A DNA stretch of 64,000 nucleotides from Bacteroidales bacterium UBA6117 (GCA_002428385.1 DIWB01000003.1:366-64365); one strand, 5' to 3'. Shown: positions 4,025 through 18,980, counted from the stretch's first letter. The notes: a model not told the origin generated them from the letters alone. Numbers and translations: made by a program.

Positions 4025-4678
4025 TCATACATATGTCTGCCTGTTTTTTTCAGTATAGTATCTGCAAAACTCCCTTAATCCGCACTCACTGCAAAGCGGA
4101 GCCCTGGCTTTACAGACGTATCTTCCGTGGAGAATAAGCCAGTGGTGAGCTTTATGGATCATTGACTGCGGGATGTAAGTTGTCAACTGAAGTTCGGCAC
4201 TTAACGGTGTTCTGGCGTTTCTTGTCAGGCCTATCCTTGCAGCGACTCTGAATACATGGGTGTCGACGGCCATAACTGGCTTATTGTAAACCACCGATGC
4301 CACTACGTTTGCGGTTTTCCTTCCGACACCCGGCAGTCTCTGCAGTTCCGACGGATCGGAAGGTACAACTCCTCCGAATTCACTGACCAGCATTTTAGCC
4401 ATTGCCACAAGATGCTTTGCCTTGTTGTTTGGGTAGGAACATGATTTGATGAACTCAAGTACTTCCGGCTGCTCAGCCTTTGCCATCGATTCCGCATCGG
4501 GATACCTTTCAAGAAGGGCAGGAGTGATCATGTTCACACGTTTGTCGGTGCATTGTGCTGACAGTATTACGGCAACGATCAGTTCGAAAGGGTCTGAGTA
4601 TGAGAGCTCTGTCTCTGCAATCGGCATGTTGACACTGAAATACTCAATTGTTTTGCGGTATCTTTCTCTGGTAGTCAT
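4025..4678 (-). CDS. nth: Endonuclease III (DNA glycosylase/AP lyase)
   Basis: HhH motif LPGVGRKTANVV and Fe-S loop CKARAPLCSECGLREFC (C-x6-C-x2-C-x5-C). 217 aa is the typical length. Confidence 0.9.
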   Translation of the reverse strand: MTTRERYRKTIEYFSVNMPIAETELSYSDPFELIVAVILSAQCTDKRVNMITPALLERYPDAESMAKAEQPEVLEFIKSCSYPNNKAKHLVAMAKMLVSEFGGVVPSDPSELQRLPGVGRKTANVVASVVYNKPVMAVDTHVFRVAARIGLTRNARTPLSAELQLTTYIPQSMIHKAHHWLILHGRYVCKARAPLCSECGLREFCRYYTEKNRQTYV

Positions 4679-4830
4679 ATAAGGATGAAAAGGCGGATCT
4701 AAAGTTAGTTTTTTTTATCAATGAATGTAATCCTTCTGCAAGCGTACCGCTCTTGAGGATAAGGATATTTTGGGGTTTTATATGTGATTCCGTATGTTTT
4801 GTTAACTTTATCGGGCAAAGGAGAAGTCAA

Positions 4831-5868
4831 TTGGAAAAAATAGTAATCAAGACAAGTGATTCTGTTTCGGATATCCTTGTAGGTGAAGGCTGGGAGATGG
4901 TTCATGAACTGCTGCCCGAATCGGGTGTCGCAATCCTGACTGACGAAAATATTTACAGGATTTATGGAGACAAATTCCCCGGTTTCCCGGTATTTCAGGT
5001 AAGACCCGGAGAGTCAAGCAAAAAGTTGCGGGTTGTTGAATCACTGGCCGGAGAGCTTCTGGAGGCCGGGATCGACCGGGATGGGTTAATTCTTGGCATC
5101 GGTGGGGGTGTAGTATGCGACCTGGCAGGATTTCTGGCTTCCATTTATATGCGGGGCATCAGATGCGCTTATGTCTCTGCTTCGCTGCTTTCCCAGGTCG
5201 ACGCCAGTACGGGAGGAAAAAACGGAGTGAACCTTGAGGGGGCAAAAAATGTTCTTGGCTGCTTTAAACAGCCGGAGTTTGTCATCTGTGATCCGCTGAT
5301 GCTGGAGACCCTGCCCGAGGAGGAATATTATTCGGGACTTGCCGAACTTATCAAGACAGCGCTTATTGGCGACAGTAAACTATTTGAGTTTATAGAGAAC
5401 AATCATGCGGGAATATCCCGTCGTGATCCGGGACTGCTTTCAATGTGCATTTCAATGGCTGTGAACTTTAAGGCAGCTGTTGTCACTGAAGACGAAAAGG
5501 AGACCGGACTCAGGCGTATCCTTAATTTCGGGCATACTTACGGTCATGCAATGGAGATGTTTAAATCGTACCGGCACGGATATGCTGTTGCCGCCGGAAT
5601 GGAACTTGCCTCCGGCTTTTCACTCTCCAGGGGAATGATAACAAGGGAGGAACATGAAAGGATAACAGGTCTGCTTAAATCATACGGATTACTGCTGAGT
5701 CATGACATTCCGGACGACCAGATAACTCAGCTGATAATGAAGGACAAGAAAAAGTCGGGAAATGACATAAACTTTGTATTCCTGAACGGAATAGGCAAAG
5801 CAGTGGCTGAAAAGATCACTGTGAAAGAAGCAGCTGAGTTTTATATTCGGAGTAAACCCGCCAAATAA
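4831..5868 (+). CDS. aroB: 3-dehydroquinate synthase
   Basis: Motifs GIGGGVVCDLAGFLAS and NFGHTYGHAME. The track ORF starts at ATG 4753, but its first 26 codons look non-coding. An in-frame TTG at 4831, preceded by aaaggagaag, gives (M)EKIVIKTSD and about 346 aa. The start is uncertain. Confidence 0.85.
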   Translation: MEKIVIKTSDSVSDILVGEGWEMVHELLPESGVAILTDENIYRIYGDKFPGFPVFQVRPGESSKKLRVVESLAGELLEAGIDRDGLILGIGGGVVCDLAGFLASIYMRGIRCAYVSASLLSQVDASTGGKNGVNLEGAKNVLGCFKQPEFVICDPLMLETLPEEEYYSGLAELIKTALIGDSKLFEFIENNHAGISRRDPGLLSMCISMAVNFKAAVVTEDEKETGLRRILNFGHTYGHAMEMFKSYRHGYAVAAGMELASGFSLSRGMITREEHERITGLLKSYGLLLSHDIPDDQITQLIMKDKKKSGNDINFVFLNGIGKAVAEKITVKEAAEFYIRSKPAK

Positions 5869-6880: not shown

Positions 6881-8227
6881 TCATTCGGACGGATCGTTCA
6901 TCTCAATCCTCAGTACCGTTCTTGTTGATTCAGTAACCCTGAACCTGTCATCAAGCCTTTCCCCCATTACCCAGACAATGTCACCGTCCGATTCAAGTAT
7001 CAGGGTTTCTTCCTTTCTTATCCTTGAAAACTTGTTATCGACAAAGTAATCACTGAGTTTCTTTCTGTTCTTCATGCCCAGGGGTACGAAGTAATCGCCC
7101 TCTTTCCATCTTCTTACAATAATAGGCAGCCTGATCTTTTCGCGGTCGATGGAAGCAATCCGCGGATCGCTTGGTATAGTGCTGCCGGTATCAACCGGCT
7201 CAAGCGAGGCTGACTTTACCGACGGGATACTCAACAGATCCTCCACGGATTCTATAAGGAGATCATCCTGCCGGTCGTGTCTGACCGGACTTACAATAAG
7301 TTCATTCCTGTTCTTCAGAATCCGGTGTGTTAATGTGAATATCTGTTTTCCGGTGGCTGCATTAATCAGTTTTTGAAGGTCTCCTGCAAGAGGTTTTGTT
7401 ATGCCCCAGGGGAAGAAGAGTTCGAACATCATTGCTTTGTTTTCACTGAATTCAGCCAGTTTCTCAGTATCAAAAACTATGGATTTGCCTCTTGGTACAG
7501 AAACCCGTAATCTGATGCCTTCGATGTGTTCCGAAAGTATTCTGTCGAGCCCGCCCAGCCTGAGCGCTGTATCATTGAGCGTCTCCTCTATAGATGGATT
7601 AATCTCCCTGAGAACGGGGATCACAAGATGCCTTATCTTGTTGCGCGTATATTTGGTTTCGGCATTCGATCTGTCTTCCCTGAATGGTATGCTGTATTCG
7701 TTGCACCAGGCTTCAATTCTTGCCCTGGTTGCAAAAAGGAGAGGCCTGATGATTCCATTGGCTGAAGGCTTCATCCCGGCCAGTCCTGTGAGTCCTGTGC
7801 CCCTTATGAGGTTAATAAGCAGAGTTTCAATGTTGTCGTTCAGATTGTGGGCCACGGCAACAAGGTTGCAGCCTTGCCGGATTTTTAATTGTTCAAACCA
7901 TTCATACCGCAGGTCCCTGGCGGCCATTTGTATAGATATGCCTTTTCCTTCTGCAAATTTCATTGTATCAAAAGATACTGAATGGAAGGGGATGTCATTC
8001 TTCCCTGCATAGTCCCTGACAAGTTCCTCGTCCCTATCCGATTCAACACCTCTCAGCCTGAAGTTGCAGTGGGCGATAACCGTATCGGCTTTTATCCTCG
8101 CGAACAGGTGAAGCATTACCATTGAATCGATCCCTCCGCTTACAGCCAGCAGTATCCTGTCATTCTTTGTGAACAGGGCATTCCTGGCAGCATAATCCTT
8201 AAATTCTTCAAATAAAGTCATAATCAT
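6881..8227 (-). CDS. tilS: tRNA(Ile)-lysidine synthetase
   Basis: PP-loop AVSGGIDSMVMLHL near the N-terminus, 448 aa. Its start overlaps the stop of the upstream Omp85-like gene by 4 nt. Confidence 0.9.
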   Translation of the reverse strand: MIMTLFEEFKDYAARNALFTKNDRILLAVSGGIDSMVMLHLFARIKADTVIAHCNFRLRGVESDRDEELVRDYAGKNDIPFHSVSFDTMKFAEGKGISIQMAARDLRYEWFEQLKIRQGCNLVAVAHNLNDNIETLLINLIRGTGLTGLAGMKPSANGIIRPLLFATRARIEAWCNEYSIPFREDRSNAETKYTRNKIRHLVIPVLREINPSIEETLNDTALRLGGLDRILSEHIEGIRLRVSVPRGKSIVFDTEKLAEFSENKAMMFELFFPWGITKPLAGDLQKLINAATGKQIFTLTHRILKNRNELIVSPVRHDRQDDLLIESVEDLLSIPSVKSASLEPVDTGSTIPSDPRIASIDREKIRLPIIVRRWKEGDYFVPLGMKNRKKLSDYFVDNKFSRIRKEETLILESDGDIVWVMGERLDDRFRVTESTRTVLRIEMNDPSE

Positions 8228-10197
8228 CTGAATGGTACTATGGATGGTTGACCTGGTTCAAAATTGTAAGGTCTCAGCATTTGCTCTCCTGATACCATTA
8301 ACGGGGTTGTGATTGAGTACGGCGGAACATTCGGATAAAAACCCAGCCTGATCTGTAATGTGTTAAGGATGAGATTGTCGTTCCTTACTCTGAGGCCAAG
8401 TCCGAAGGCCGACACAAATTCGCCCCTTGCCACGAACTGGTTAGTTCCGAAGAGAAATCCGGCATCGGCAAATCCGAATAATGCAAACCTGAAACCATAA
8501 AAATCAATCGGACTGAAAAGCACTGTTTCGAAGTTAAAGGCAAGTCTCTGGGTATTGCCAATTGAATCGTTCCGGAAGCCGGAAAAACCATCATCACAGA
8601 TAAAGGTCAGTGATTCGTCGTAATACCTGTCAAAACCCCGTGTATATTCAGCGTTTATAAAGTTCCTTATCCGGTATCTGCCTGTATAGAGAAGGTTCGA
8701 AATAAAATTGGCTCTGAACGAGAGGATGCCCTGTTCTGTTTTGTTATGGTTAATGAAGGTTCCGAAAGCGGCTGAATAATAAAGATAGCCCAATTTGTTA
8801 ACCGATTCGCCCAGCGATACGGATGCCCCGGCGTAGTACCTGTTCTTGAATTCATTGAATTCGCGTCCGGCAGTAATATTAAACAAAAGTCCGTGAGGGA
8901 TGTCTTCAGTGCGGCCATAGCCATAGATAAGGCTTGCCTTGTAGAATCTCTGGACTGAATAGGAGACAGAACCAAGGAAGAGGCGGTATTGCTGAAGATT
9001 GTGATAGGAGTCGGGATGGATATATGGATGCAGGAATACATTATTATTGGTGTATCGCACTCCGACGATGAGCCGGGTGACCGACTTGTTGTCGATAAGG
9101 AAAGATCTTAGGAGCCAGTAATCCTGTAAATTATATTTAACAGGATGCGGTTCGGGAAGGGAATCGAGATCCTCCGAGGTGATAGTTTTTCGGAGAGTAA
9201 TGTTCCCCGCGTATTTTGTTGCCGAGCTTATCAGCCTGCGGCCGACATCTATTCCATAGGTCTTTCTGCCCAGCCCGTCGTGAAAGAATAATCCCAGGTT
9301 GGTAAAGGTTTTTCCCAGGTTGTTCACTTTGTAATTTACTCCGAATCCGGGAGAATTTGTGGAGTCAATATCCCAGGGAACATCAATTCCGAATTCATGT
9401 CCCATTCCAAAGATATTCCGTTCGAACACGGATACCTTTCCTTTTCCGACTCCTGCCAGGCTGGCCGATGCCCCGAGGGAGTATATATCTTTTGTAACAA
9501 CTATAACATCTGCAAGAGAATCGGAAACGGGAACCACCAGAATCCTTGCGTCGTCGATATAGGGCAGTTCCCTCAGGTATCTCTCGTTGTCACTCAGGGT
9601 AAGAGGGGAGATGGTGTCGCCTGACCTGAAAAGGAGGTTCTTCTTTATTATGAGCTCGTTGGTATTGAAGTGAGTTTTGTTAAGGAGTCTTTCTGTTCTG
9701 TTTGGTTCAAAGAAATCAGGAGTGTTAATGTTTGAGCCAAAGACATTCAGTCTTTTGATTTCTATATTTCTGATTTTCAGGCCCGAAGTATTCACGAATT
9801 TCTCTTCGCTTGAGCCTGAGATCTCTTTTGTAGTTTCGGGATCGCGGTTGATGATAATGAAATCGTAGAGCTTTTTGGTGACCAGTGTTTTGGAAGCCTT
9901 GTTCTTTAAGGAATCGAGGAAGATCATGGTGCGGTGTTCTCCGTTTCCGGCAGGTGGAATGAGTCTTGAAGCCTCTGAATTGCCGTTCTCCGGCAGCGAC
10001 AGCCTTATCTTCCTGATATCAGGCAGAGGAAGACGCTCTTCTTTTTTACTTATTGCAGAATCTGCAGAAAATTGTCTCTGTGGGTAGGATGGCAGGAAAA
10101 TAAGTAGAAATATCTGGAAGCAGAAGAATCTCCGGATCAGCTGAAACCTTTTAATATCTTCATTTTCAGGTTTCATTCTGATTTTTGAGTAGAACAT
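8224..10197 (-). CDS. Omp85/BamA-superfamily outer-membrane barrel with a single POTRA-like domain
   Basis: N-terminal hydrophobic segment; a POTRA-like stretch (IRNIEIKRLNVFGS...LRELPYIDDARILVVPVSDSLADVIVVTKDI); an L6-like YTRGF; a C-terminal GLGLRVRNDNLILNTLQIRLGF resembling the surface-antigen barrel motif. The start could be M8 at 10176. Confidence 0.55.
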   Translation of the reverse strand: MFYSKIRMKPENEDIKRFQLIRRFFCFQIFLLIFLPSYPQRQFSADSAISKKEERLPLPDIRKIRLSLPENGNSEASRLIPPAGNGEHRTMIFLDSLKNKASKTLVTKKLYDFIIINRDPETTKEISGSSEEKFVNTSGLKIRNIEIKRLNVFGSNINTPDFFEPNRTERLLNKTHFNTNELIIKKNLLFRSGDTISPLTLSDNERYLRELPYIDDARILVVPVSDSLADVIVVTKDIYSLGASASLAGVGKGKVSVFERNIFGMGHEFGIDVPWDIDSTNSPGFGVNYKVNNLGKTFTNLGLFFHDGLGRKTYGIDVGRRLISSATKYAGNITLRKTITSEDLDSLPEPHPVKYNLQDYWLLRSFLIDNKSVTRLIVGVRYTNNNVFLHPYIHPDSYHNLQQYRLFLGSVSYSVQRFYKASLIYGYGRTEDIPHGLLFNITAGREFNEFKNRYYAGASVSLGESVNKLGYLYYSAAFGTFINHNKTEQGILSFRANFISNLLYTGRYRIRNFINAEYTRGFDRYYDESLTFICDDGFSGFRNDSIGNTQRLAFNFETVLFSPIDFYGFRFALFGFADAGFLFGTNQFVARGEFVSAFGLGLRVRNDNLILNTLQIRLGFYPNVPPYSITTPLMVSGEQMLRPYNFEPGQPSIVPFR

Positions 10198-10876
10198 CGT
10201 CAGAGTTGAACTGGAATCCGAGACGTTTACCCGTTATTATCCTGGAATGCTGTATTTTTTCTTCCGCCTGTCCGACTGTGGCAATTTTTACTGTATCGTA
10301 CGGAGGTACGAGTAGATCAAATTCCAGGGAGTATTGGATAGCGGTAGATATTATTACCTGCAGGGAAGACCGGGTAATTGGCTCATTGCCGTAGTTCGAG
10401 AAGAGCATGCCCATCTGTCGTTTTCCTTCAACCAGGTACTGGTTTTCATGGTTAATGAAGATCCTCGCGATCAGGTATCCGAGATCGTCAAGCCTTGAGT
10501 ATTTGAACGAATCGTACAGAAAGTTGTAAATATTGATCATTCCCGAATACGCGTTGTTCTTGTTTTTCTGGATATACGGTGTTTTCCATGCCGGATGTTC
10601 CCTGTCGAACTGAAAGATATTTGAATGCATGCTGAACAGAAGAAGATCGCCGGCTACCTTAAGTTGCGCATCGAAGCTGCTCCTGTCGGTATACTCCATT
10701 TTGATCCTTGAATCCACGTTCCCGAGGTTGTTGTTGACATCCCTGGACAGGTTTTTCAGTAAATCCTTTACTACATTGAACCATTCAAAGGTATTGTCGA
10801 ATACTTTTTGTTTCAGCAGCGATTTCTCCTTTAGTGTGTTGATAATCTGAACTTTTTTATCTTCGGGTTCTGGCAT
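10166..10876 (-). CDS. Hypothetical protein (no motif recognised)
   Basis: 236-aa ORF heading a tightly packed unknown-Omp85-tilS string. It overlaps the next gene by 32 nt (11 nt if that gene starts at 10176). No signal peptide or catalytic motif seen. Confidence 0.6.
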   Translation of the reverse strand: MPEPEDKKVQIINTLKEKSLLKQKVFDNTFEWFNVVKDLLKNLSRDVNNNLGNVDSRIKMEYTDRSSFDAQLKVAGDLLLFSMHSNIFQFDREHPAWKTPYIQKNKNNAYSGMINIYNFLYDSFKYSRLDDLGYLIARIFINHENQYLVEGKRQMGMLFSNYGNEPITRSSLQVIISTAIQYSLEFDLLVPPYDTVKIATVGQAEEKIQHSRIITGKRLGFQFNSDDVLLKNQNET

Positions 10877-10941: not shown

Positions 10942-12417
10942 TTAGTATGATCTTGCAAAAAGGACGCGTCTTTTTGAGGGTAAGCCTGAGTAGATGCAAA
11001 TGCCTTCTTCTTCAGGTGAGTCGAAAGGTATACACCTGATGGTGGCCTTGGTCTCTTCCTTGATTTTTTCCTCTGTTTCTGATGTGCCGTCCCAGTGGGC
11101 CAGAATGAAGCCTCCTTTTTTCTCGATGATTTCAATAAATTCTGTCCATGTGTCTATCCTGTATGTATTGTCAGCACGGAATTTCAATGCCTTTTGGAAC
11201 AAATTGGCCTGGATATCCTCAAGCAGAGCCTTTATCCTCTTCGGCAGCCCTTCTGATGAGACTGTTTCTTTTTCAAGAGTGTCGCGCCGGGCAATTTCCA
11301 CTGTATTGTTTTCAATATCCCGCGGTCCGATGGCTATCCTTACCGGAACACCCTTCAGCTCATAATCTGCGAATTTGAAACCCGGTTTAAGGTTATCGCG
11401 GTCGTCGTACTTCACTGAGATGCCCGCTTTCTGAAGTTCTGCCATAATTGTCCTGGCCTTTTCGCTGATAAGCTGAAGCTGTTCGTCAGTTTTGAAGATG
11501 GGGACAATTACAGTCTGGGTTGGAGCCAGCCTGGGTGGCAGGATAAGTCCTTTATTATCGGAGTGAGCCATTATCAGGGCTCCTACCATCCTTGTCGATA
11601 CTCCCCACGAAGTAGCCCATACGTAATCGAGCTTCCCTGTCTTGTCAGTGAACTGAACATCGAAGGCTTTGGCAAAATTCTGACCAAGGAAATGGCTTGT
11701 TCCTGCCTGAAGGGCTTTCCCGTCCTGCATCAGGGCTTCAATTGTATAGGTGTCGATTGCCCCTGCAAAACGTTCGTTTTCCGTCTTGTATCCCCTGATG
11801 ACGGGAAGCGCCATATAATTTTCAGCAAAGTCAGCATATACATTTATCATCCTTTCTGTTTCCTCAACAGCTTCCTGACTTGTCGCGTGGGCTGTATGCC
11901 CCTCCTGCCAGAGAAACTCAGATGTCCTCAGGAACAGACGGGTACGCATCTCCCATCTGACAACGTTCGCCCACTGGTTGATCAGAATCGGGAGGTCGCG
12001 GTAGGACTGGATCCAGTTTTTGTATGAATTCCAGATAATCGTTTCGGAGGTGGGGCGGATTATGAGCTCTTCCTCCAGTTTAGCGGCAGGATCAACAACA
12101 ATCCCCTTCCCATTCTCATCGTTTTTCAGCCTGTAGTGGGTGACAACTGCACACTCCTTGGCAAATCCTTCAACATGTGCTGCTTCCCTGCTGAAAAAAG
12201 ATTTAGGTATAAAAAGAGGAAAATATGCATTGACATGGCCTGTTGCCTTGAACATTTTGTCAAGTCCGGCCTGTATGTTTTCCCATATTGCATAACCATA
12301 GGGCTTGATAACCATGCAGCCCCTCACTGCCGAATTCTCGGCAAGATCGGCTTTTATTACAAGGTCGTTGTACCATTGTGCATAATTGTCTTCCCTGTCT
12401 GTCAAAAACTTAGCCAT
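10942..12417 (-). CDS. proS: Prolyl-tRNA synthetase, archaeal/eukaryote-like type
   Basis: 491 aa. N-terminus [25 protein letters not shown] and C-terminal ...VLFARSY are typical of the short class II ProRS found in Bacteroidota. Confidence 0.95.
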
Positions 12418-12712
12418 TGTATGGTGTGGTATTTTAAATTGTTTGTATCATTTATAAGCCGGTCGTAAAAGTAGTTAAATATTGGAAATTTAAAAAAGCG
12501 GGTGTCCGCACGGGCAGTAAACAGCGGAGTTGCTTTGCCATGCAGACTAAAAGAGAATTATAAGCGTTTTGAAAATGATTGTTACTTTGGCAAAAAGAAT
12601 TAAATTTGCTGAAACCTGAAGCCTGAGTAAAAATCTGGAAAACCTTGATACTTTGGTATGGATTTTGATATTTGTTGGTAAGTAAAGTAAACAAAAGGAA
12701 ACAACAACCAAA

Positions 12713-14023
12713 ATGAAAGCAACAAATTACATATTCGGCCTTGCCCTTCTGACTCTCGCCTCCTGCTCTTCGGGGCTGTATGTGGGAACAGAATACGATG
12801 ACCTGTATTTTGTGAGTTCCGATCAGCCTGTAACAAAGGCAAGAACAAGCGAGCGCAATCAGATTTCCGAAGACAATCTGAGATCAGGATCATATTACGA
12901 CAACATCTATGCTGCCGACACCCTGGTATCGGAGGAATATTCCGATGCAGTCGACTATGCTGATGCGGGCAGTTATGACAACAGATACGATTATTATGAC
13001 GGCTCCTACTCCGGAAGGCTGAACAGGTTTTACGGGAACTACTTCAACCCTTACTGGAGGGATCCATTCTACTCCAGCTTCTACCCGTCGTTCGGGTTCA
13101 ATAGCTTCTACTCCGGATTTCCGTACTCATACTACGATCCGTTCTACTACGATTACTACAGCCCTTATTCCTACGGAGGTTTTTACAGCCCCTACTCATA
13201 CGGCGGGTACTATGGAATGGGAATGGGCATGGGAATGGGAATGGGATATTACAGCCCATACTACAGCTCCTTCTATTCACCCTGGTACTACGGAGGCTAT
13301 TACAGCCCCTACACATTCAACGACCGTGATGTGAATTACGGAAGAAGGGAAAAACCAAGCAACATGTCTACCCGCTGGTCAGGCGGCAGCTCCACAGGAG
13401 CGTCCGGAACTTCCGGAACAGCATCATCCAGGAGAACCACCGACCCGGCTTCCGGCACCGGAGTACCGGCCACCGGAACTGTTGGAACATCAACTTTGAG
13501 AAGGACTACCACCCCGGTCAGCGGTACTCAGCAGCCTGTAGCAGGTGAAAGAAGAACCACTACCCAGGGGGCCGGCAACACCGGAACTCAGTCAACCCAG
13601 ACTAGAAGACCGGCTGCCACACGCCCTGAATACAATTCAGTCAACAGGTCATACACTCCTACTTACACAAATCCAAGGGTTAGCACCAGGCCTTCATACA
13701 ACAACACCAGGGTAAACAGCGGGACTACCACCACCAGGCCTTCCAGCTCTTCGACCCAGGGAAGAAGTAGTTCATCATATTCCGCTCCCTCCAGGTCAGG
13801 CTCGTCTTACAGCAACCCCGGCACCTATTCTGTTCCGTCAAGAAGAAGCTCAGGATCAGGATCATCCTACCCCGGCGGCAGTTCTTCCTACAGCGGAGGC
13901 AGCTCCGTGTCGAGGAGCAGCGGCTCATCATACTCAGGAGGTTCTTCCTACTCGGGTTCTTCATCCTCTGGCAGCTCTTCATCATCATCATCCGGCCGCT
14001 CTTCATCAGGAGGAAGAAGGTAA
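12713..14023 (+). CDS. Tyr/Ser/Gly/Thr-rich low-complexity lipoprotein
   Basis: Signal peptide with lipobox LTLASC, then YYSPY/SYGGFY/(GM)5 motifs, RRTT-P-SGT repeats and an SSYSGG tail ending GGRR. Long open frame with a proper signal sequence. No homology call possible by eye. Confidence 0.75.
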   Translation: MKATNYIFGLALLTLASCSSGLYVGTEYDDLYFVSSDQPVTKARTSERNQISEDNLRSGSYYDNIYAADTLVSEEYSDAVDYADAGSYDNRYDYYDGSYSGRLNRFYGNYFNPYWRDPFYSSFYPSFGFNSFYSGFPYSYYDPFYYDYYSPYSYGGFYSPYSYGGYYGMGMGMGMGMGYYSPYYSSFYSPWYYGGYYSPYTFNDRDVNYGRREKPSNMSTRWSGGSSTGASGTSGTASSRRTTDPASGTGVPATGTVGTSTLRRTTTPVSGTQQPVAGERRTTTQGAGNTGTQSTQTRRPAATRPEYNSVNRSYTPTYTNPRVSTRPSYNNTRVNSGTTTTRPSSSSTQGRSSSSYSAPSRSGSSYSNPGTYSVPSRRSSGSGSSYPGGSSSYSGGSSVSRSSGSSYSGGSSYSGSSSSGSSSSSSSGRSSSGGRR

Positions 14024-14100
14024 TTAATTTAATAACACATTGATTATCAATACATTCCTTAATGGAATGCGGGTATTCTCTTAAATAAAAAGAAAAGATA

Positions 14101-15582
14101 ATGAAAAGGTCAGCCTTAATAATTGTAGCAGCATTGCTTACATTCACCGGACTCAAAGCCCAGAATGTAGATGATGCCCTAAGATACTCCCAGATCTTCT
14201 ATACCGGTACAGCCAGGTTCATGTCGATGGGGGGGGCCTTCACAGCCCTCGGAGGCGATATGTCAACATTTAGCCAGAACCCTGCCGGAATCGGTGTGTT
14301 CAGATCTTCAGAAATATCACTGACACCGCAGCTTCTGCACGCAAAAACGTCAGCTAATTTCAACGGGATCTCCGATGATTATCTGTACAATTTTAACCTT
14401 GGCCAGGCAGGCGTTGTCGGAAACCTGATAAAGGGAAGCGGAACCACCGGATTGATCTCACTCAATGTCGGATACTCATTCAACAAGACGAACAACCTGA
14501 ACAATACGGCACGTATTCAGGGAAACAGCGCAAACAGCTCAATGGCCGATTACTGGGCTGATGAGGCTTACGGTATTTACTATGGCGATATCGGAGGCGC
14601 AGCAGGAATTGCTTACGATGCATGGATCATCGATACTTTAAGAGATGCGAATGCCAGTTACTATGGTACGGTTTTTTCGAATTACGGCGACAATCCAACA
14701 TCCGATTACGGTCAGAACATCAGGCGACTGATCACCAACCAGGGATATACGGGTGAACATGCAATATCAATCGGTGGAAACTATTCAAACAAAGTGTATT
14801 TCGGAGCAACCCTGGGTATCAACACTATGAGGTATACCGGACATTATGAGCATCTTGAGAAAGCCGACTATTTCCTCGATTCACAGTTCAGCGATTTCTC
14901 TTATGTTGAGCATTTTGAAAATACAGGAACAGGGGTTAACCTCAAGATTGGAGCTATAATCAGACCGGTAGAGGAACTCAGGATAGGAGTTGCTTTCCAT
15001 TCACCCACATTATATAAGATTAATGAGAGGTTCTATGATAACATCTCTTCCAACTTCACCGATGGTGGCCATTATGAATTCTATAACGACGAGCTGGTTT
15101 ATGAATATGCACTGACAACTCCTTTCAGGGTTCTTGCCGGTGTTGCTTACCAGATTGAAAAAACTGGTCTGCTTAGCGTTGATTATGAATTTGTTGATTA
15201 CAGCATGGTTAAGTTCTCGGAAACAGGCGATGACTATGATTACAGCGAGAAGAACCTTGATATAAAGAATACACTGCAACCTGCACATAACATCCGCGTT
15301 GGCGGCGAACTGAGGTTTAACAAACTGTACTTCAGGGGAGGATACGGCTATTACGGAAAAGTATTCAGGGAGGATGAGGTTAACAAGGATTTGTTCAACA
15401 GGTCAATTTCGGCAGGACTCGGCTTCAGGGAGCAGAACCTGAGTATCGACTTCGGCTTTACCAACATGAGGAACGAACAGAAATACATACTTTACGACTC
15501 TTACTACGAAACTGCAATGGCCAACCTGACTAACACCAGGAATATGTTTTCGGTTACCCTTGGCTATAAATTTGGCTTCTGA
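14101..15582 (+). CDS. FadL/TodX/PorV-like outer-membrane beta-barrel protein
   Basis: Signal peptide MKRSALIIVAALLTFTGLKAQ, a FadL-type N-terminal segment GTARFMSMGGAFTALGGDMSTFSQNPAG, alternating beta-strand pattern, and a C-terminal aromatic ...LGYKFGF. Confidence 0.7.
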   Translation: MKRSALIIVAALLTFTGLKAQNVDDALRYSQIFYTGTARFMSMGGAFTALGGDMSTFSQNPAGIGVFRSSEISLTPQLLHAKTSANFNGISDDYLYNFNLGQAGVVGNLIKGSGTTGLISLNVGYSFNKTNNLNNTARIQGNSANSSMADYWADEAYGIYYGDIGGAAGIAYDAWIIDTLRDANASYYGTVFSNYGDNPTSDYGQNIRRLITNQGYTGEHAISIGGNYSNKVYFGATLGINTMRYTGHYEHLEKADYFLDSQFSDFSYVEHFENTGTGVNLKIGAIIRPVEELRIGVAFHSPTLYKINERFYDNISSNFTDGGHYEFYNDELVYEYALTTPFRVLAGVAYQIEKTGLLSVDYEFVDYSMVKFSETGDDYDYSEKNLDIKNTLQPAHNIRVGGELRFNKLYFRGGYGYYGKVFREDEVNKDLFNRSISAGLGFREQNLSIDFGFTNMRNEQKYILYDSYYETAMANLTNTRNMFSVTLGYKFGF

Positions 15583-15602
15583 TTTACTTTACTGATTAAT
15601 AA

Positions 15603-15632
15603 AAAAACGGTGCCTGGCCAGGCACCGTTTTT
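15603..15632. terminator. Bidirectional rho-independent terminator
   Basis: Perfect 30-nt palindrome AAAAACGGTGCCTGG|CCAGGCACCGTTTTT, with an A-tract on one side and a T-tract on the other. It lies between the convergent FadL-like gene (+) and the WbqC gene (-). Confidence 0.8.
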
Positions 15633-15637
15633 ATTTG

Positions 15638-16240
15638 CTATAAAAACAAGGCTGCATCCGGACCAAGGTTGAAGATCAGATCGAGGATACTTAAACCCGG
15701 CACAAAACCGGCTTCTCCGAAAACCTGGATGTAAGGCTTTGAACTGAATACCTGTTCTCTTTTTGGTGAAATGCAGTACCTGTAATCCCCTGGCTTAAGG
15801 GTGGCCGGTTCAAACGATGAAGTGTAGTTTATACACTTATTAATATTCAAAAGGGTGAGGCACTCCTGAAGCAGTTCCTGGTTAAGGTCGATAAGAAAAC
15901 GATGTTTTTTTTGCAGAATGCTGAAGATGTTTTCGGAATAATAAAGGAAGTAAGGCGATCTTCCGTATGCTGATGTGAAGGCTCCTGTATGAACCTGTTG
16001 CCATCGTTTCGAATAATCAATCTGAATATCTTTTACCGGCGCTTTTAACCTGTCGCCTTTCGTGACCGGCACGGAGAGGATCAGTACACCATTTGATGCA
16101 AGTATCATGCATCTGTTCCTGTAGGTTTGTTTGAGGTAGTTTTCTTCCCGTTCTAAAAATACGATTGCTGCATCCCGGATAAGCCTGAAATAGCAGGCCG
16201 GAGGAAAGTATGCCGTGGAAAGAAGCAGTTTGTCGGCCAT
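15638..16240 (-). CDS. WbqC-family protein
   Basis: N-terminus LLLSTAYFPPACYFRLI...LEREENYLKQTYRNRCMILASNGVLILSVPV matches my memory of the WbqC-like family. It starts 9 nt after the larB stop. Confidence 0.7.
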   Translation of the reverse strand: MADKLLLSTAYFPPACYFRLIRDAAIVFLEREENYLKQTYRNRCMILASNGVLILSVPVTKGDRLKAPVKDIQIDYSKRWQQVHTGAFTSAYGRSPYFLYYSENIFSILQKKHRFLIDLNQELLQECLTLLNINKCINYTSSFEPATLKPGDYRYCISPKREQVFSSKPYIQVFGEAGFVPGLSILDLIFNLGPDAALFL

Positions 16241-16249
16241 CAGGGCAGA

Positions 16250-16999
16250 TCACTTCATATGGTTAATCATGCTTGCAGAGAAGCCGGCGCCGAAACCATT
16301 GTCGATATTGACAACAGTCACCCCTGAGGAACAGCTTGTAAGCATTGCCAGCAGCGCCGATATGCCTCCGAAACTTGCTCCGTATCCAACGCTTGTGGGA
16401 ACAGCGATAACGGGTGAGCTGACCAGTCCTCCGACAACACTTGCAAGGGCTCCCTCCATGCCGGCAATTACAATTACCACACGGCATTTCCTTATTTCGG
16501 GGAGTTTATCCACAAGGCGGTGTATGCCGGCAACGCCTGCATCATATATCCTGAGAACGTTGTTCCCGAGAAGTTCTGCAGTGACGGCAGCCTCTTCAGC
16601 AACCGGTATGTCGGAGGTGCCTGCAGTGATAACCGCAATAGCAGTTTCGGGCCGTTTCATTTCGCGGAAAGGGATGCTTATGATTCGTGCCTCCGGATAC
16701 CAGACGGCTTCGGGGAAAATTTCCTTCACCGCGTCGTACATTTCCCGGCCGGCCCTGGTTCCGATGACATTGTTCTTTTTCCCCGCCATCAGCCTGAAGA
16801 TTCCAATGACCTGGTCGGTAGTCTTCCCTGCGCAGTATACTATTTCAGGATACCCTGTCCTGATCTCCCGGTGATTATCAATTTTTGCATACCCGAGATC
16901 GGTAAACGGAAAGTCGTGCAGAATGTCGAGTGCTTCCTCTACGCTTTTACTTCCGTCTTTTATCTCCCTGAGGAGTGTTTCAATGTCGTCCCTGTTCAT
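16250..16999 (-). CDS. larB: Nickel-pincer cofactor biosynthesis protein LarB (NaAD carboxylase/hydrolase, PurE-like)
   Basis: 249 aa with DNHREIRTGYPEIVYCAGKT and a PurE-like ITAGTSDIPVAEEA...VIAGMEGALASVVGGL core. 4-nt overlap with larE. Confidence 0.9.
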   Translation of the reverse strand: MNRDDIETLLREIKDGSKSVEEALDILHDFPFTDLGYAKIDNHREIRTGYPEIVYCAGKTTDQVIGIFRLMAGKKNNVIGTRAGREMYDAVKEIFPEAVWYPEARIISIPFREMKRPETAIAVITAGTSDIPVAEEAAVTAELLGNNVLRIYDAGVAGIHRLVDKLPEIRKCRVVIVIAGMEGALASVVGGLVSSPVIAVPTSVGYGASFGGISALLAMLTSCSSGVTVVNIDNGFGAGFSASMINHMK

Positions 17000-17799
17000 G
17001 GTCTGGTGTTTTCAGGATCATAGGAGCCTGATCTGTATCCTTCGAGATCCAAAGATACATATCTGAATCCGATTTTCTTAAGTCCTGAGATAATAAGTTC
17101 TCTGTCAGGACTCTGAGTCATCTTGCTGAAATTGGCGGGGTGGCATTCTATCCGGGCCAGGTCGCCATGTATCCGGACCCTGGTTCCCGGATATCCGCTG
17201 GTTCGAAAGAAATCTTCCGCCTGTTCAACCATAAGGATCATTTCGGAAGTTACTGCAGTGTTATAAGGGATCCTGGTGAGCAGGCACGCCATAGAAGGTT
17301 TAGAGGCGATATTAAGTCCTTCTGCGGCCAGTAAATCCCTGATGTCCTGTTTTGTGAGGCCAGCTTCCATCAGGGGGCTTCTGACGCCCAGCTCCTTAAG
17401 CGCCCTGATTCCAGGTCGGTGAGAGTTGGCATCATCAGCGTTGGAGCCGTCGACGACGTGACTGAAACCGTTGTCAGCAGCAAAGCCAAGCAGTTGTCCG
17501 AACAGTATCTTTTTGCAGATGTAGCACCTGTCGGGTGGATTATTCCGGATTGGTTCAGGGAAGGAAAGATCCAATATACGGTGGCTGATTTTATGTGCCC
17601 TCGCAAATTCAGTAGCTTCTTCAATTTCCGAATCAGGCATATAGGGGGTACTGAGGGTGACTCCAGTTATTTTTTCTTTCAGGAGTGAATGTGCGCGAAG
17701 AAGGAGATATGAACTATCCACACCTCCTGAAAAACCTACGACAAAGGAATTCAGATCAATAAGCAAACGGTCAAGTTTATCCCTTTTGTTTTCGGTCAT
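16996..17799 (-). CDS. larE: LarE sulfur-insertion ATP pyrophosphatase
   Basis: PP-loop GFSGGVDSSYLL, 267 aa, with cysteines in DRCYICKK and SMACLLTRIPY. 4-nt overlaps with both larC and larB. Confidence 0.9.
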   Translation of the reverse strand: MTENKRDKLDRLLIDLNSFVVGFSGGVDSSYLLLRAHSLLKEKITGVTLSTPYMPDSEIEEATEFARAHKISHRILDLSFPEPIRNNPPDRCYICKKILFGQLLGFAADNGFSHVVDGSNADDANSHRPGIRALKELGVRSPLMEAGLTKQDIRDLLAAEGLNIASKPSMACLLTRIPYNTAVTSEMILMVEQAEDFFRTSGYPGTRVRIHGDLARIECHPANFSKMTQSPDRELIISGLKKIGFRYVSLDLEGYRSGSYDPENTRP

Positions 17800-18980
17800 G
17801 ATTGCTTTTTGTTGTTTACAATAACCGAGATGATATTGTTATAAACCTCCTTGACGGGGATGTTTCTTTCCGATGCAATCTTCCTGCATTCTTCGTATTC
17901 TGGTTTGACGGAGACCTGTTTCCCGCCGAAGAACGACCTTTTCACCGTTACCTCGCCGTAGATTGTGTCAACCTTAAAGGTTTCCCTTGCAAGTGTGTCC
18001 TTATTAAATTCAAATGATCTCATTCCGAGCGTGGTGGACTCTGTGAAGATTATCTCTTTCAGCTTGTTTTCCGAACCCTTTTCGCATATAACATTAAGAA
18101 TTACGCCGGGTCGTCCCTTTTTCATTATGATCTGAGTGAAAAATACATCAGCAGCGCCGGCCCTGAAAAGATTATCGGAAATATGGTCGTAAAACTCCGG
18201 ATTCATGTCGTCAATATTTGCTTCCAGCAAGACGGCCCTGTGTCCCCGCGCATTATCTCCGGCTGCTTCGCCCATAAAGACCCTGAGGAGGTTGGGTACC
18301 ACGGGATGTTCCTTATGTCCAATTCCGTAGCCTGTTTTTGTTATGGTAAGCTCTGGTCCGGTGCCGAATTTTGTCCCGAGGGCAGTGACAATTGCAGCTC
18401 CTGTAGGTGTTGTAGCCTCAAAATCAACGCCTCCGACCCTGACAGGAATTCCTTTTATTATTTCGGCTGTAGCCGGCGCCGGCACCGGCAGCCTGCCATG
18501 ATCGCAATTAACGAAGCCGCTCCCGAGTTCAACCTCCGAAACGTATACCGCTTCAACCCCAAGTGCAACGAAGCATATTGCGGCACCGGTAACGTCAATT
18601 ATTGAATCGACTGCTCCTACCTCGTGGAAATGAACCACTTCGAGTGGTATTCCGTGAACGGCAGCCTCAGCCTGTGCAATTTTCATGAATATCTTCATGC
18701 TCAATTCTTTAACCTTATCAGGCAAAGCTGATCCCGTGATTATCTTTTCAATATCCGATAAGTGCCTGTGTACATGTTCGTGCCTGGTTTGCCTTACGGT
18801 TATTCTAGTTCCTGTGATCCCGTGGCGCTGGCTCTTTTCTGAGATAAGTTCCCATCCCTCCAGTCGGAGCTTTTCAAGTTCGGATCTGAGAAATCCGGTA
18901 TCAATGCCAAGGTCGACCATGGCGCCGAGGTTCATGTCGCCGCTAATACCCGAAAAACAATCATAGTACAGTACTTTCAT
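17796..18980 (-). CDS. larC: LarC nickel insertase (DUF111 family)
   Basis: N-terminus MKVLYYDCFSGISGDMNLGAMVDLG is the DUF111/LarC signature. Single 394-aa ORF, no frameshift needed. Confidence 0.9.
   Translation of the reverse strand: MKVLYYDCFSGISGDMNLGAMVDLGIDTGFLRSELEKLRLEGWELISEKSQRHGITGTRITVRQTRHEHVHRHLSDIEKIITGSALPDKVKELSMKIFMKIAQAEAAVHGIPLEVVHFHEVGAVDSIIDVTGAAICFVALGVEAVYVSEVELGSGFVNCDHGRLPVPAPATAEIIKGIPVRVGGVDFEATTPTGAAIVTALGTKFGTGPELTITKTGYGIGHKEHPVVPNLLRVFMGEAAGDNARGHRAVLLEANIDDMNPEFYDHISDNLFRAGAADVFFTQIIMKKGRPGVILNVICEKGSENKLKEIIFTESTTLGMRSFEFNKDTLARETFKVDTIYGEVTVKRSFFGGKQVSVKPEYEECRKIASERNIPVKEVYNNIISVIVNNKKQS

Follow-up and report, generated by a model that had tools for sequence, protein, structure and literature searches.

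A conserved gene pair of Bacteroidota encoding a predicted disordered Tyr/Ser/Gly/Arg-rich lipoprotein and a divergent FadL-fold barrel

We analyzed a 64,000-nucleotide (nt) stretch of DNA from Bacteroidales bacterium UBA6117 (GCA_002428385.1 DIWB01000003.1:366-64365), referred to below as the window, and found in it a pair of adjacent genes that is a real gene unit conserved across the phylum Bacteroidota. Gene 1 (12713..14023, + strand) encodes a lipoprotein of 436 amino acids (aa), rich in Tyr, Ser, Gly, and Arg, whose mature chain is predicted to be fully disordered. Gene 2 (14101..15582, + strand) encodes a 493-aa protein which, by structure modeling, is a divergent barrel of the FadL fold. 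Both are open reading frame (ORF) calls. An initial annotation of this DNA had proposed the same ORF pair, with a 295-bp gap upstream and a 77-nt spacing between the genes, and all of these coordinates proved correct. It had also called the two genes a self-contained unit. The pair is indeed conserved, but it always lies divergent from proS, the gene for prolyl-tRNA synthetase, and a third, secreted paralog accompanies it in about half of the close relatives, so that part of the description was too strong.

The two genes stay together. We scanned bacterial and archaeal genome assemblies and obtained 80 loci, whose barrels are 58 to 96% identical and of which nearly all are labeled as uncultured Bacteroidales or Bacteroidota. 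The lipoprotein gene sits directly upstream of the barrel gene at 75 of the 75 loci that have enough upstream DNA, and the pairing seen in the initial annotation is thus borne out. At these close-clade loci the gene order runs TilS, an Omp85-like ORF, a 236-aa ORF, and proS on one side of the pair and WbqC, LarB, LarE, and LarC on the other. Linkage in the 80 close-clade loci was therefore rejected as the sole proof of coupling, since proS, WbqC, and LarB/E/C are syntenic too. Because the close-clade loci share their whole neighborhood, we examined distant lineages. The distant carriers are Gaoshiqia, which we take to belong to the family Prolixibacteraceae; a Flavobacteriales assembly; Aureibaculum conchae and another Flavobacteriaceae genome; and two further Bacteroidales lineages. 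The barrels of these carriers share only 25 to 35% identity with that of the window, and every other flanking gene differs. Nevertheless, a divergent proS followed by the disordered lipoprotein gene and then the barrel gene is the order kept in all eight lineages examined. Whether the barrel is always adjacent had been posed as a question for the pair, and synteny is kept in the close clade and in the distant lineages alike. The two genes are 11 to 100 nt apart in seven of the lineages compared; in the eighth (L090) the gap is 271 nt, and in three distant lineages it is only 11 to 20 nt.

The two proteins also appear to diverge together. In a partial Mantel test over 50 loci, with five neighbor genes controlled, the correlation between lipoprotein and barrel divergence was r = 0.60, the highest of 21 gene pairs and a value reached by 0 of 2,000 permutations. 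This co-evolution signal is only suggestive, because the unrelated pair proS/LarC also gives a high value.

A few loci appear to depart from the pattern. In two uncultured Bacteroidales with MFD isolate names (L036, 4527-5913; L074, 4535-5679), the lipoprotein gene is split over several frames while the barrel is intact; the frameshifts are either homopolymer sequencing errors or true pseudogenes, and the MFD names suggest, we presume, Nanopore assemblies. A third apparent exception to the linkage (L042) has a masked N-run. One contig labeled as a Chloroflexota metagenome-assembled genome (L062, JBLNAO010000259.1) shows full Bacteroidales-type synteny, with a barrel 63% identical to that of the window, and is probably mis-binned.

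Gene 1 is a real protein-coding gene under purifying selection. Compared with four relatives (barrels 84 to 96% identical), its ratio of nonsynonymous to synonymous substitution rates (dN/dS) is 0.10 to 0.13, and all indels are in frame; for gene 2, the ratio against the same four relatives is 0.05 to 0.08. Disrupted frames in close relatives, which the initial annotation had named as a finding that would speak against the gene, did not appear in this comparison. Could gene 1 nevertheless be a spurious ORF running across repetitive DNA? Its low complexity, the two short tandem DNA repeats that it contains, and the lack of a domain match would fit such an origin. This idea is effectively refuted by the dN/dS values and in-frame indels, by 22 invariant columns and a conserved lipobox in 77 homologs, by hundreds of family clusters across two bacterial classes, and by the shortness of the ORFs antisense to gene 1.

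The gene 1 product starts with a signal peptide and lipobox, MKATNYIFGLALLTLASC (12713..12766, + strand, as for all parts of the gene). The lipobox, read from the sequence, is LTLASC, the motif initially annotated; its lipidated Cys, residue 18, is invariant in a 77-sequence alignment. Judged by its sequence, the mature chain of 419 residues is a block polyampholyte. First comes an acidic N-terminal block (12767..13012; aa 19-100) with an isoelectric point (pI) of 4.1, which carries EYDDLYF, fixed in its distance from the Cys, and also YYDNIYAADTLVS, where D69-T70-L71 is invariant. It is followed by an aromatic/Gly block (13013..13327; aa 101-205) that opens with the conserved GRLNRFYGNYFNPYWRDPFY and holds 30 Tyr, 12 Phe, and 2 Trp, or 44 aromatic residues out of 105. 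The remaining part, about 230 residues, is a basic Ser/Thr/Gly/Arg tail (13328..14020; aa 206-436; pI 11.6), in which the conserved blocks are YGRREKPSNMSTRW; RPEYNSVNRSYTPTYTNPRVSTRPSYNNTRV (aa 304-334, nt 13622-13714); YSVPSRRS; and the terminal GGRR.

The composition is extreme. Tyr makes up 12.8% of the protein, Ser 22.2%, and Gly 13%, while for the 33 remaining ORFs of 250 aa or more in the window the averages are 3.3% Tyr (standard deviation [SD], 1.4) and 6.7% Ser (SD, 1.3). Sequence entropy is 3.60 bits, versus 4.07 (SD, 0.06) for the same 33 ORFs. Residues 60 to 205, a segment of 146 residues, contain 40 Tyr, in agreement with the roughly 40 in 145 first counted, and the repeats described earlier, RRTT(D/T)P..SGT, TRPEYNS/TRPSYNN, and the SSYSGG tract ending in GGRR, were all found. 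The aromatic/Gly block also holds a (GM)5 repeat, around which the initial annotation had arranged the Tyr motifs. The repeat is present, but it stems from a local hexanucleotide DNA repeat, GGAATG x5.5 at 13214-13246, whose length differs even among the closest relatives, and we therefore regard it as incidental rather than conserved. Likewise, the composition is as unusual as first stated, but "low complexity" does not mean featureless, given the conserved blocks and the large family. Across gene 1, at 13001-14000 of the window, GC content rises to 0.54, with a GC skew of -0.15, compared with 0.42 to 0.48 in the flanks; we attribute this rise to the content of Ser, Gly, Arg, and Tyr codons.

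In an AlphaFold2 model of gene 1 built from the 77-sequence alignment, everything after the signal peptide is coil, with a mean predicted local distance difference test (pLDDT) score of 45 and a predicted template modeling (pTM) score of 0.18. The mature lipoprotein is thus predicted to be fully disordered. Neither gene 1 nor its distant orthologs gave a Pfam, NCBIfam, or PDB-sequence match, the last in a profile search; the PDB hits of the gene 1 profile were low-complexity only, at E > 0.01, and we dismissed them. The earlier statement that gene 1 has no recognizable domain therefore stands, and structure prediction, which had been suggested for the pair, gave a coil for gene 1 and a FadL fold for gene 2 (pTM, 0.74).

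Gene 1 belongs to a new lipoprotein family without a Pfam or NCBIfam model. A word-indexed search found 207 homologs, all unnamed proteins of 420 to 500 aa from metagenome-assembled genomes of Bacteroidales or Bacteroidia, with the same composition, the lipobox Cys at residue 18, and a C terminus in ...SSGGRR. In alignments of 23 and 77 sequences, the conserved elements were LYxGxEYDDLYY, the acidic-block motif given above, SYSGRLRRFYGNYFxPYWRDPFY, YGRRERxSxLSxRW, RPEYNSVNRTYTPSYSNPRMSTRPSYNNSRV, YSVPSRRS, and the terminal RR. A profile search of 1.84 billion representative proteins, clustered at 50% identity, then gave 706 clusters at E <= 1e-3, 228 at E <= 1e-10, and 50 at E <= 1e-30. Taking E <= 1e-10, the family is large, with at least 228 clusters. 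The distant full-length members that we inspected (E of about 1e-14 to 1e-30) have the lipobox Cys at about residue 18, DD[ILV]YY, and a terminal GRR, with about 10% Tyr, 18% Ser, and 8% Arg; in the flavobacterial lipoproteins the Arg/Ser tail is more extreme still, at 15% Arg. All named members come from Bacteroidota, including the cultured Gaoshiqia (WP_423128144.1) and Flavobacteriales. Full-text searches of a library of papers found none on the lipoprotein/barrel pair or on the lipoprotein family.

Among 167 full-length lipoprotein members, a DDxYY-type motif lies 9 to 14 residues after the Cys in 163, at exactly +12 in 115 of them, and a C-terminal basic pair is present in 155. Bacteroidota have an O-glycosylation sequon, D-[ST]-[ALIVMT]. 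Two sites of the pair fit it: D69-T70-L71 of gene 1 (12917-12925; invariant in 77 homologs) and aa 178-180 of the barrel, where D178-T179 is conserved. Enrichment of the sequon was rejected, with 167 occurrences observed versus 174 expected from shuffles. Some relatives in the family lack a lipobox and start with an SNYEKYLLAKE-type N terminus (for example, L095, 5001-6272), although they show the Tyr-rich plus Ser/Arg architecture and end in RR. This separate subgroup adjoins neither a barrel gene nor proS.

The initial annotation had called gene 2 a FadL/PorV-like barrel of 493 aa. The FadL part of this description is upheld by structure. AlphaFold2 models gene 2 as a large beta-barrel (pLDDT, 73; pTM, 0.74), with pLDDT below 50 in the N-terminal 62 residues. 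The top 26 Foldseek matches of the model in the PDB are all FadL-family chains (E of 9e-15 to 1e-8; TM-score, 0.44 to 0.66). The best is Bacteroides thetaiotaomicron BamG (9hiv_F, E of 9e-15; also 9n2d_B and 9hjm_F), and BamG of F. johnsoniae (5e-13) and P. gingivalis (9e-13) are found as well. The transporters TodX (3bs0, 3e-14), a Pseudomonas aeruginosa FadL homologue (3dwo, 1e-13), and Escherichia coli FadL (about 1e-12) score similarly, so that BamG, TodX, and FadL resemble the gene 2 barrel about equally in fold. On this modeling, gene 2 is a divergent 14-strand FadL-fold barrel.

In sequence, the barrel stands apart. Searches against all PDB chains with the window barrel, with a 36-sequence profile, or with a Flavobacteriaceae ortholog gave no match at E <= 1 to 10. 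The chain set included the BamG chains 9hiv_F, 9n2d_B, and 9hjm_F, and the Flavobacteriaceae ortholog did not match even F. johnsoniae BamG; no homology to the characterized BamG proteins Bt4367, Fjoh_1412, and P. gingivalis BamG was thus seen, and the identification of the barrel as BamG by sequence was therefore rejected. PF03349, the FadL/TodX/OmpP1 family, does not match the window barrel at E <= 1. A precomputed match exists in most homologs, and the Aureibaculum ortholog scores 55 bits against a cutoff of 29.7; the flavobacterial orthologs are annotated as "OmpP1/FadL family transporter." The NCBI name of a 96%-identical protein, in turn, is "UPF0164 family protein." UPF0164 (PF03687) scores 23.6 bits on gene 2 against a cutoff of 21.4, but this match covers only aa 19-73, the N-terminal 55 residues, at profile positions 30-85 of 325, a region that falls on the hatch.

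Bacteroidota also have PorV and PorQ, barrels of the FadL superfamily to which other proteins dock at the surface; PorU and PorZ are held there by them. Gene 2 scores weakly with models of this group. NCBIfam PorV2 gives 30.3 bits on the window barrel against a cutoff of 325; in distant orthologs, PorV_fam gives 45 and 34.6 bits against 90, and PorQ gives about 20 against 220. With these scores below the curated cutoffs and type IX secretion genes absent from all eight contexts, assignment to PorV/PorQ was rejected, and the PorV part of the initial description fell with it. As neither gene 1 nor its orthologs match a Pfam or NCBIfam model, no type IX C-terminal sorting domain came to light in them either, and no PorV, FapF, or CsgG chain appears among the 50 Foldseek matches listed. 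Since the barrel has the FadL fold but no sequence match to solved chains and only weak model scores, it is a distinct branch of the FadL superfamily, separate from BamG, PorV, and classical FadL.

The most conserved part of the barrel is the hatch segment (14161..14310, + strand; aa 21-70), QNVDDALRYSQIFYTGTARFMSMGGAFTALGGDMSTFSQNPAG..., and invariant columns are dense over aa 21-78. It contains an NPA motif at aa 60-62 (nt 14278-14286; SQNPAG at aa 58-63), whose N60 and P61 are invariant in 36 homologs. If the signal peptide is cleaved after A20, NPA occupies mature residues 40-42. In E. coli FadL it is at residues 33-35, as named in the PDB mutants N33A, P34A, and delta-NPA. The segment from the mature N terminus to NPA is thus about 7 residues longer than in E. 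coli FadL; it is highly conserved, with model pLDDT below 50 there.

What might such a pair do? We propose that the barrel is a dedicated membrane partner of the lipoprotein, its dock or portal, by analogy with BamG and BamH; we hold this reading tentatively and put it a little short of an even chance. BamG is a FadL-fold protein of Bacteroidota that binds the N-terminal region and the lipid anchor of the lipoprotein BamH (PMC12578637, PMC12611786). The B. thetaiotaomicron paralogs BamG2/BamH2 (Bt1785/Bt1786) form a putative operon (PMC12578637), so that a FadL-type barrel gene beside a lipoprotein gene is an established pattern in the phylum. PorV, a FadL homologue, binds type IX secretion substrates and serves as a substrate-binding shuttle (cited in PMC12578637). 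Like BamG and BamH, the pair combines a 14-strand FadL-fold barrel with a lipoprotein, BamG is the best Foldseek match, and the N terminus of the barrel is highly conserved in both (PMC12578637 for BamG). The likeness has limits. The gene 2 barrel is 45 to 90 residues longer than BamG, and the pair has no link to BamA, whereas BamG, whose extended and conserved N-terminal tail threads its lateral opening, associates tightly with BamA. BamH, which carries an export signal, folds into an arch-shaped lipoprotein on the surface, while the gene 1 product is predicted to be disordered and lacks that signal.

In the mechanism that we envisage, the pair makes up an outer-membrane module, in which the lipoprotein would be processed by Sec/Lsp, with the whole mature chain disordered, and the barrel gene would be co-transcribed with gene 1. 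The barrel would bind the anchor-proximal motif beside the lipid anchor. The fixed spacing of DDxYY from the anchor agrees with docking to a membrane-embedded partner. Possibly, the barrel lets the lipoprotein chain reach the cell surface. The remainder of the lipoprotein would then reach out as a flexible chain and make up a sticky, partly polycationic layer of polymer at the outer membrane, in which the aromatic block may serve for self-association or for glycan and hydrophobic contacts and the basic tail may bind polyanions: lipopolysaccharide, capsule, extracellular DNA, or peptidoglycan. We infer the physical association of lipoprotein and barrel, the side of the membrane faced, and the biological role. 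A Tyr-rich disordered segment at the outer membrane of Bacteroidota has been described before: extracellular loop 3 of their BamA is Tyr/Gly/Asn-rich, flexible, and disordered and lies on the outer face of the outer membrane (PMC12578637). That loop is 38 residues within BamA, whereas gene 1 makes a separate mature lipoprotein of 419 residues.

Several observations weigh against this dock-or-portal proposal. With a whole neighborhood that is syntenic in the close clade, the 75 loci are not independent, and the partial correlation of the unrelated proS/LarC, r = 0.52, tempers the value found for the pair. The barrel has no sequence similarity to any solved BamG, PorV, or FadL chain, in fold it scores about as well with the transporters TodX and FadL as with BamG, and its best-conserved part is a hatch with NPA, which is typical of transporting FadL proteins. 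Finally, there is the matter of export. In Bacteroides lipoproteins, the canonical surface-export signal is defined by at least two acidic residues among the six after the Cys (PMC12578637). By this rule the signal is missing from gene 1 of the window, where the six residues are SSGLYV, and from the family: acidic residues at these positions number zero in 162 of the 167 members and one in the other 5, unlike in the export-signal-bearing BamH. From its sequence, then, the lipoprotein may stay in the periplasm, unlike BamH.

The evidence on sidedness pulls in two directions. The missing export signal favors the periplasmic side, while the precedents and a long, conserved barrel loop (aa 131-204), which we take to be extracellular, favor the surface. 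The initial annotation had imagined a barrel that displays or anchors the lipoprotein; this has a solved precedent in BamG-BamH, but the canonical surface-export signal is absent, so that surface display is only a possibility. A purely periplasmic role, with no specific complex with the barrel, is an alternative that agrees with the missing signal in those 162 members. Here, the lipoprotein would sit in the inner leaflet of the outer membrane, its tail would act as a tether, spacer, or gel toward peptidoglycan or anionic lipids, and the barrel would be co-regulated but independent. The high pI and the length of the tail, pI 11.6 over about 230 residues, and the conserved position beside housekeeping genes agree with such a role. 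We nonetheless consider it quite unlikely: the linkage persists at 25 to 35% barrel identity and with changing flanks, which is hard to explain without functional coupling, the partial divergence correlation of lipoprotein and barrel is the highest among the neighboring genes, and the fixed spacing of the anchor-proximal motif suggests a partner embedded in the membrane.

Another alternative, which the about equal resemblance in fold to TodX and FadL favors, is that gene 2 is an uptake channel and the lipoprotein its capture subunit. Hydrophobic or aromatic compounds would be imported in FadL manner, by lateral diffusion, with a division of labor following the logic of SusC/SusD. The shared features are the fold, the N-terminal hatch with its NPA motif, and the PF03349 domain in most homologs, the Aureibaculum barrel among them, and barrels in complex with surface lipoproteins have been described as a hallmark of this phylum (PMC12578637). 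Yet gene 2 always comes with a disordered lipoprotein, unlike classical FadL genes, and no catabolic genes for lipids or aromatic compounds are linked to it in any of the eight contexts. Capture would need the surface-export signal that the lipoprotein lacks, and it is hard to see how a polycationic Ser/Arg tail of 230 residues would help to capture hydrophobic molecules. The constant adjacency to proS, in addition, suggests a core envelope function and not a nutrient-specific one. On balance, we regard the uptake alternative as unlikely.

About half of the close relatives carry a third gene, a paralog that we call "A," placed between proS and the lipoprotein gene (in L002 at 4578-5828, in L001 at 4727-5863, and in about half of the loci L018-L083). 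Its product starts with an ordinary signal peptide that lacks a lipobox; its other features are a Tyr/Trp-rich block containing SSRINRFHRSY, a Ser/Arg/Asn tail, and a terminal RR. The window has neither "A" nor a second copy of the pair genes, the nearest relatives likewise lack "A," and no gene is found between proS and the lipoprotein gene at six distant loci. We conclude from these absences that the core unit is the lipoprotein and the barrel.

The presence of an anchored protein and its soluble paralog in one operon would suit a secretion pore for disordered matrix proteins. The pairs CsgB/CsgA and FapB/FapC offer a parallel to such an arrangement. By this account, the barrel would export as FapF does FapC or CsgG does CsgA, with the lipoprotein as anchored nucleator and "A" as bulk subunit of an amyloid, gel, or condensate matrix. 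As in those systems, an outer-membrane barrel gene lies beside genes for unfolded, low-complexity secreted proteins, and the cargo-like proteins are predicted to be fully disordered and have a high content of Gly, Ser, Asn, and Tyr. A signal for recognition or for stopping could reside in the conserved C-terminal RR, and FapF itself was predicted to be FadL/TodX-like before its structure was solved (PMC5137466). On the other side, the barrel architectures differ, and neither FapF nor CsgG is found among the structural matches listed. This pair would have a lipoprotein as its cargo, and Fap- or Csg-like accessory genes are absent from the locus, with no such Pfam or NCBIfam matches. The lumen of a FadL fold is plugged by a hatch, here the best-conserved segment of the barrel, and "A" is missing from the window, its closest relatives, and the six distant loci. 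We give the secretion-pore account little credence.

A more speculative form of the polymer-layer idea is that the lipoprotein is a bacterial counterpart of the cohesive low-complexity domains of eukaryotes. It would be anchored in the outer membrane, the Tyr/Phe/Gly block would drive self-association, and polyanions would be bound by the Arg/Ser tail; the result would be a layer resembling a gel or condensate and organized around the FadL-fold barrel of the pair. The resemblance to FUS-like [G/S]Y[G/S] domains, FG-nucleoporins, resilin, and RS domains is one of composition only, with Tyr/Gly/Ser and Phe/Gly motifs followed by an Arg/Ser-rich region; there is no homology, and gene 1 encodes a bacterial envelope lipoprotein. 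The phase separation, adhesion, or cross-linking that the initial annotation brought up in connection with this pattern is likewise a suggestion from composition. We consider this a long shot. If true, such a layer could either form a selective "sticky phase" where a channel for hydrophobic compounds opens or serve as a core envelope and matrix material of Bacteroidota, and in both cases it would be an envelope structure of a kind undescribed in bacteria.

Much of the outer membrane of Bacteroidota is organized by complexes of barrels with lipoproteins. FadL-fold barrels are known as transporters, and in 2025 it was shown that in this membrane they also serve as docking subunits, as BamG does for BamH. 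The present pair adds a third, sequence-distinct FadL-fold branch with a kind of partner not described before, a Tyr/Ser/Arg block polyampholyte predicted to be fully disordered. A core envelope role is suggested by its conservation from anaerobic uncultured Bacteroidales to marine Flavobacteriaceae, always beside proS. If the complex that we propose forms, it would be a tractable system for studying what long disordered proteins do in the bacterial envelope and how they are placed at the outer membrane; cultured carriers exist, namely, Gaoshiqia and Aureibaculum.

The flanking elements fit a two-gene transcription unit. The divergent neighbor, proS (10942..12417, - strand), matches the Pfam families tRNA-synt_2b, HGTP_anticodon, and ProRS-C_1. 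Promoters are presumed to lie in the 295 nt between proS and gene 1 (12418..12712), where there is one sigma-70-like match at 12645-12672; the strict Bacteroidetes-type pattern TTTG-N17-23-TAnnTTTG has no match upstream of gene 1. An Rfam scan of 12300-15800 gave only subthreshold chance matches. The 77-nt spacer between gene 1 and gene 2 (14024..14100) contains a small hairpin at 14053-14069 without a T-run, which is not significant (z = -1.7), and no terminator-like site is found between the two genes in the window. A 77-nt spacer lacking a T-run is consistent with co-transcription of gene 1 and gene 2. The unit is closed by the hairpin AAAAACGGTGCCTGGCCAGGCACCGTTTTT (15603..15632), whose perfect stem of 13 bp carries a 4-nt loop. 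Because an A-run and a T-run flank it, this hairpin scores as an intrinsic terminator in either direction, in keeping with the perfect bidirectional terminator reported initially.

Convergent with the barrel gene, the window encodes WbqC-family, LarB (AIRC), LarE-like, and LarC (Ni_insertion) proteins on the - strand at 15638-18980; the names LarE-like and LarC were taken from Pfam matches of the relatives' homologs. This nickel-pincer cofactor cluster is syntenic in the close clade only, and unrelated genes occupy the place in distant lineages. On the other side of proS lies, at 8224-10197 (- strand), a 657-aa ORF with no Pfam match and a weak NCBIfam BamA score of 23 bits against a cutoff of 297; on sequence grounds it is probably a divergent barrel of the Omp85 superfamily. 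It overlaps by 32 nt a 236-aa ORF at 10166-10876 (- strand) that matches no family. Both ORFs are syntenic with proS across the whole close clade. In Gaoshiqia and in one other locus (L093), an unannotated ORF of 228 to 229 aa occupies the same proS-adjacent position as the 236-aa ORF of the window, the likeness being one of position.

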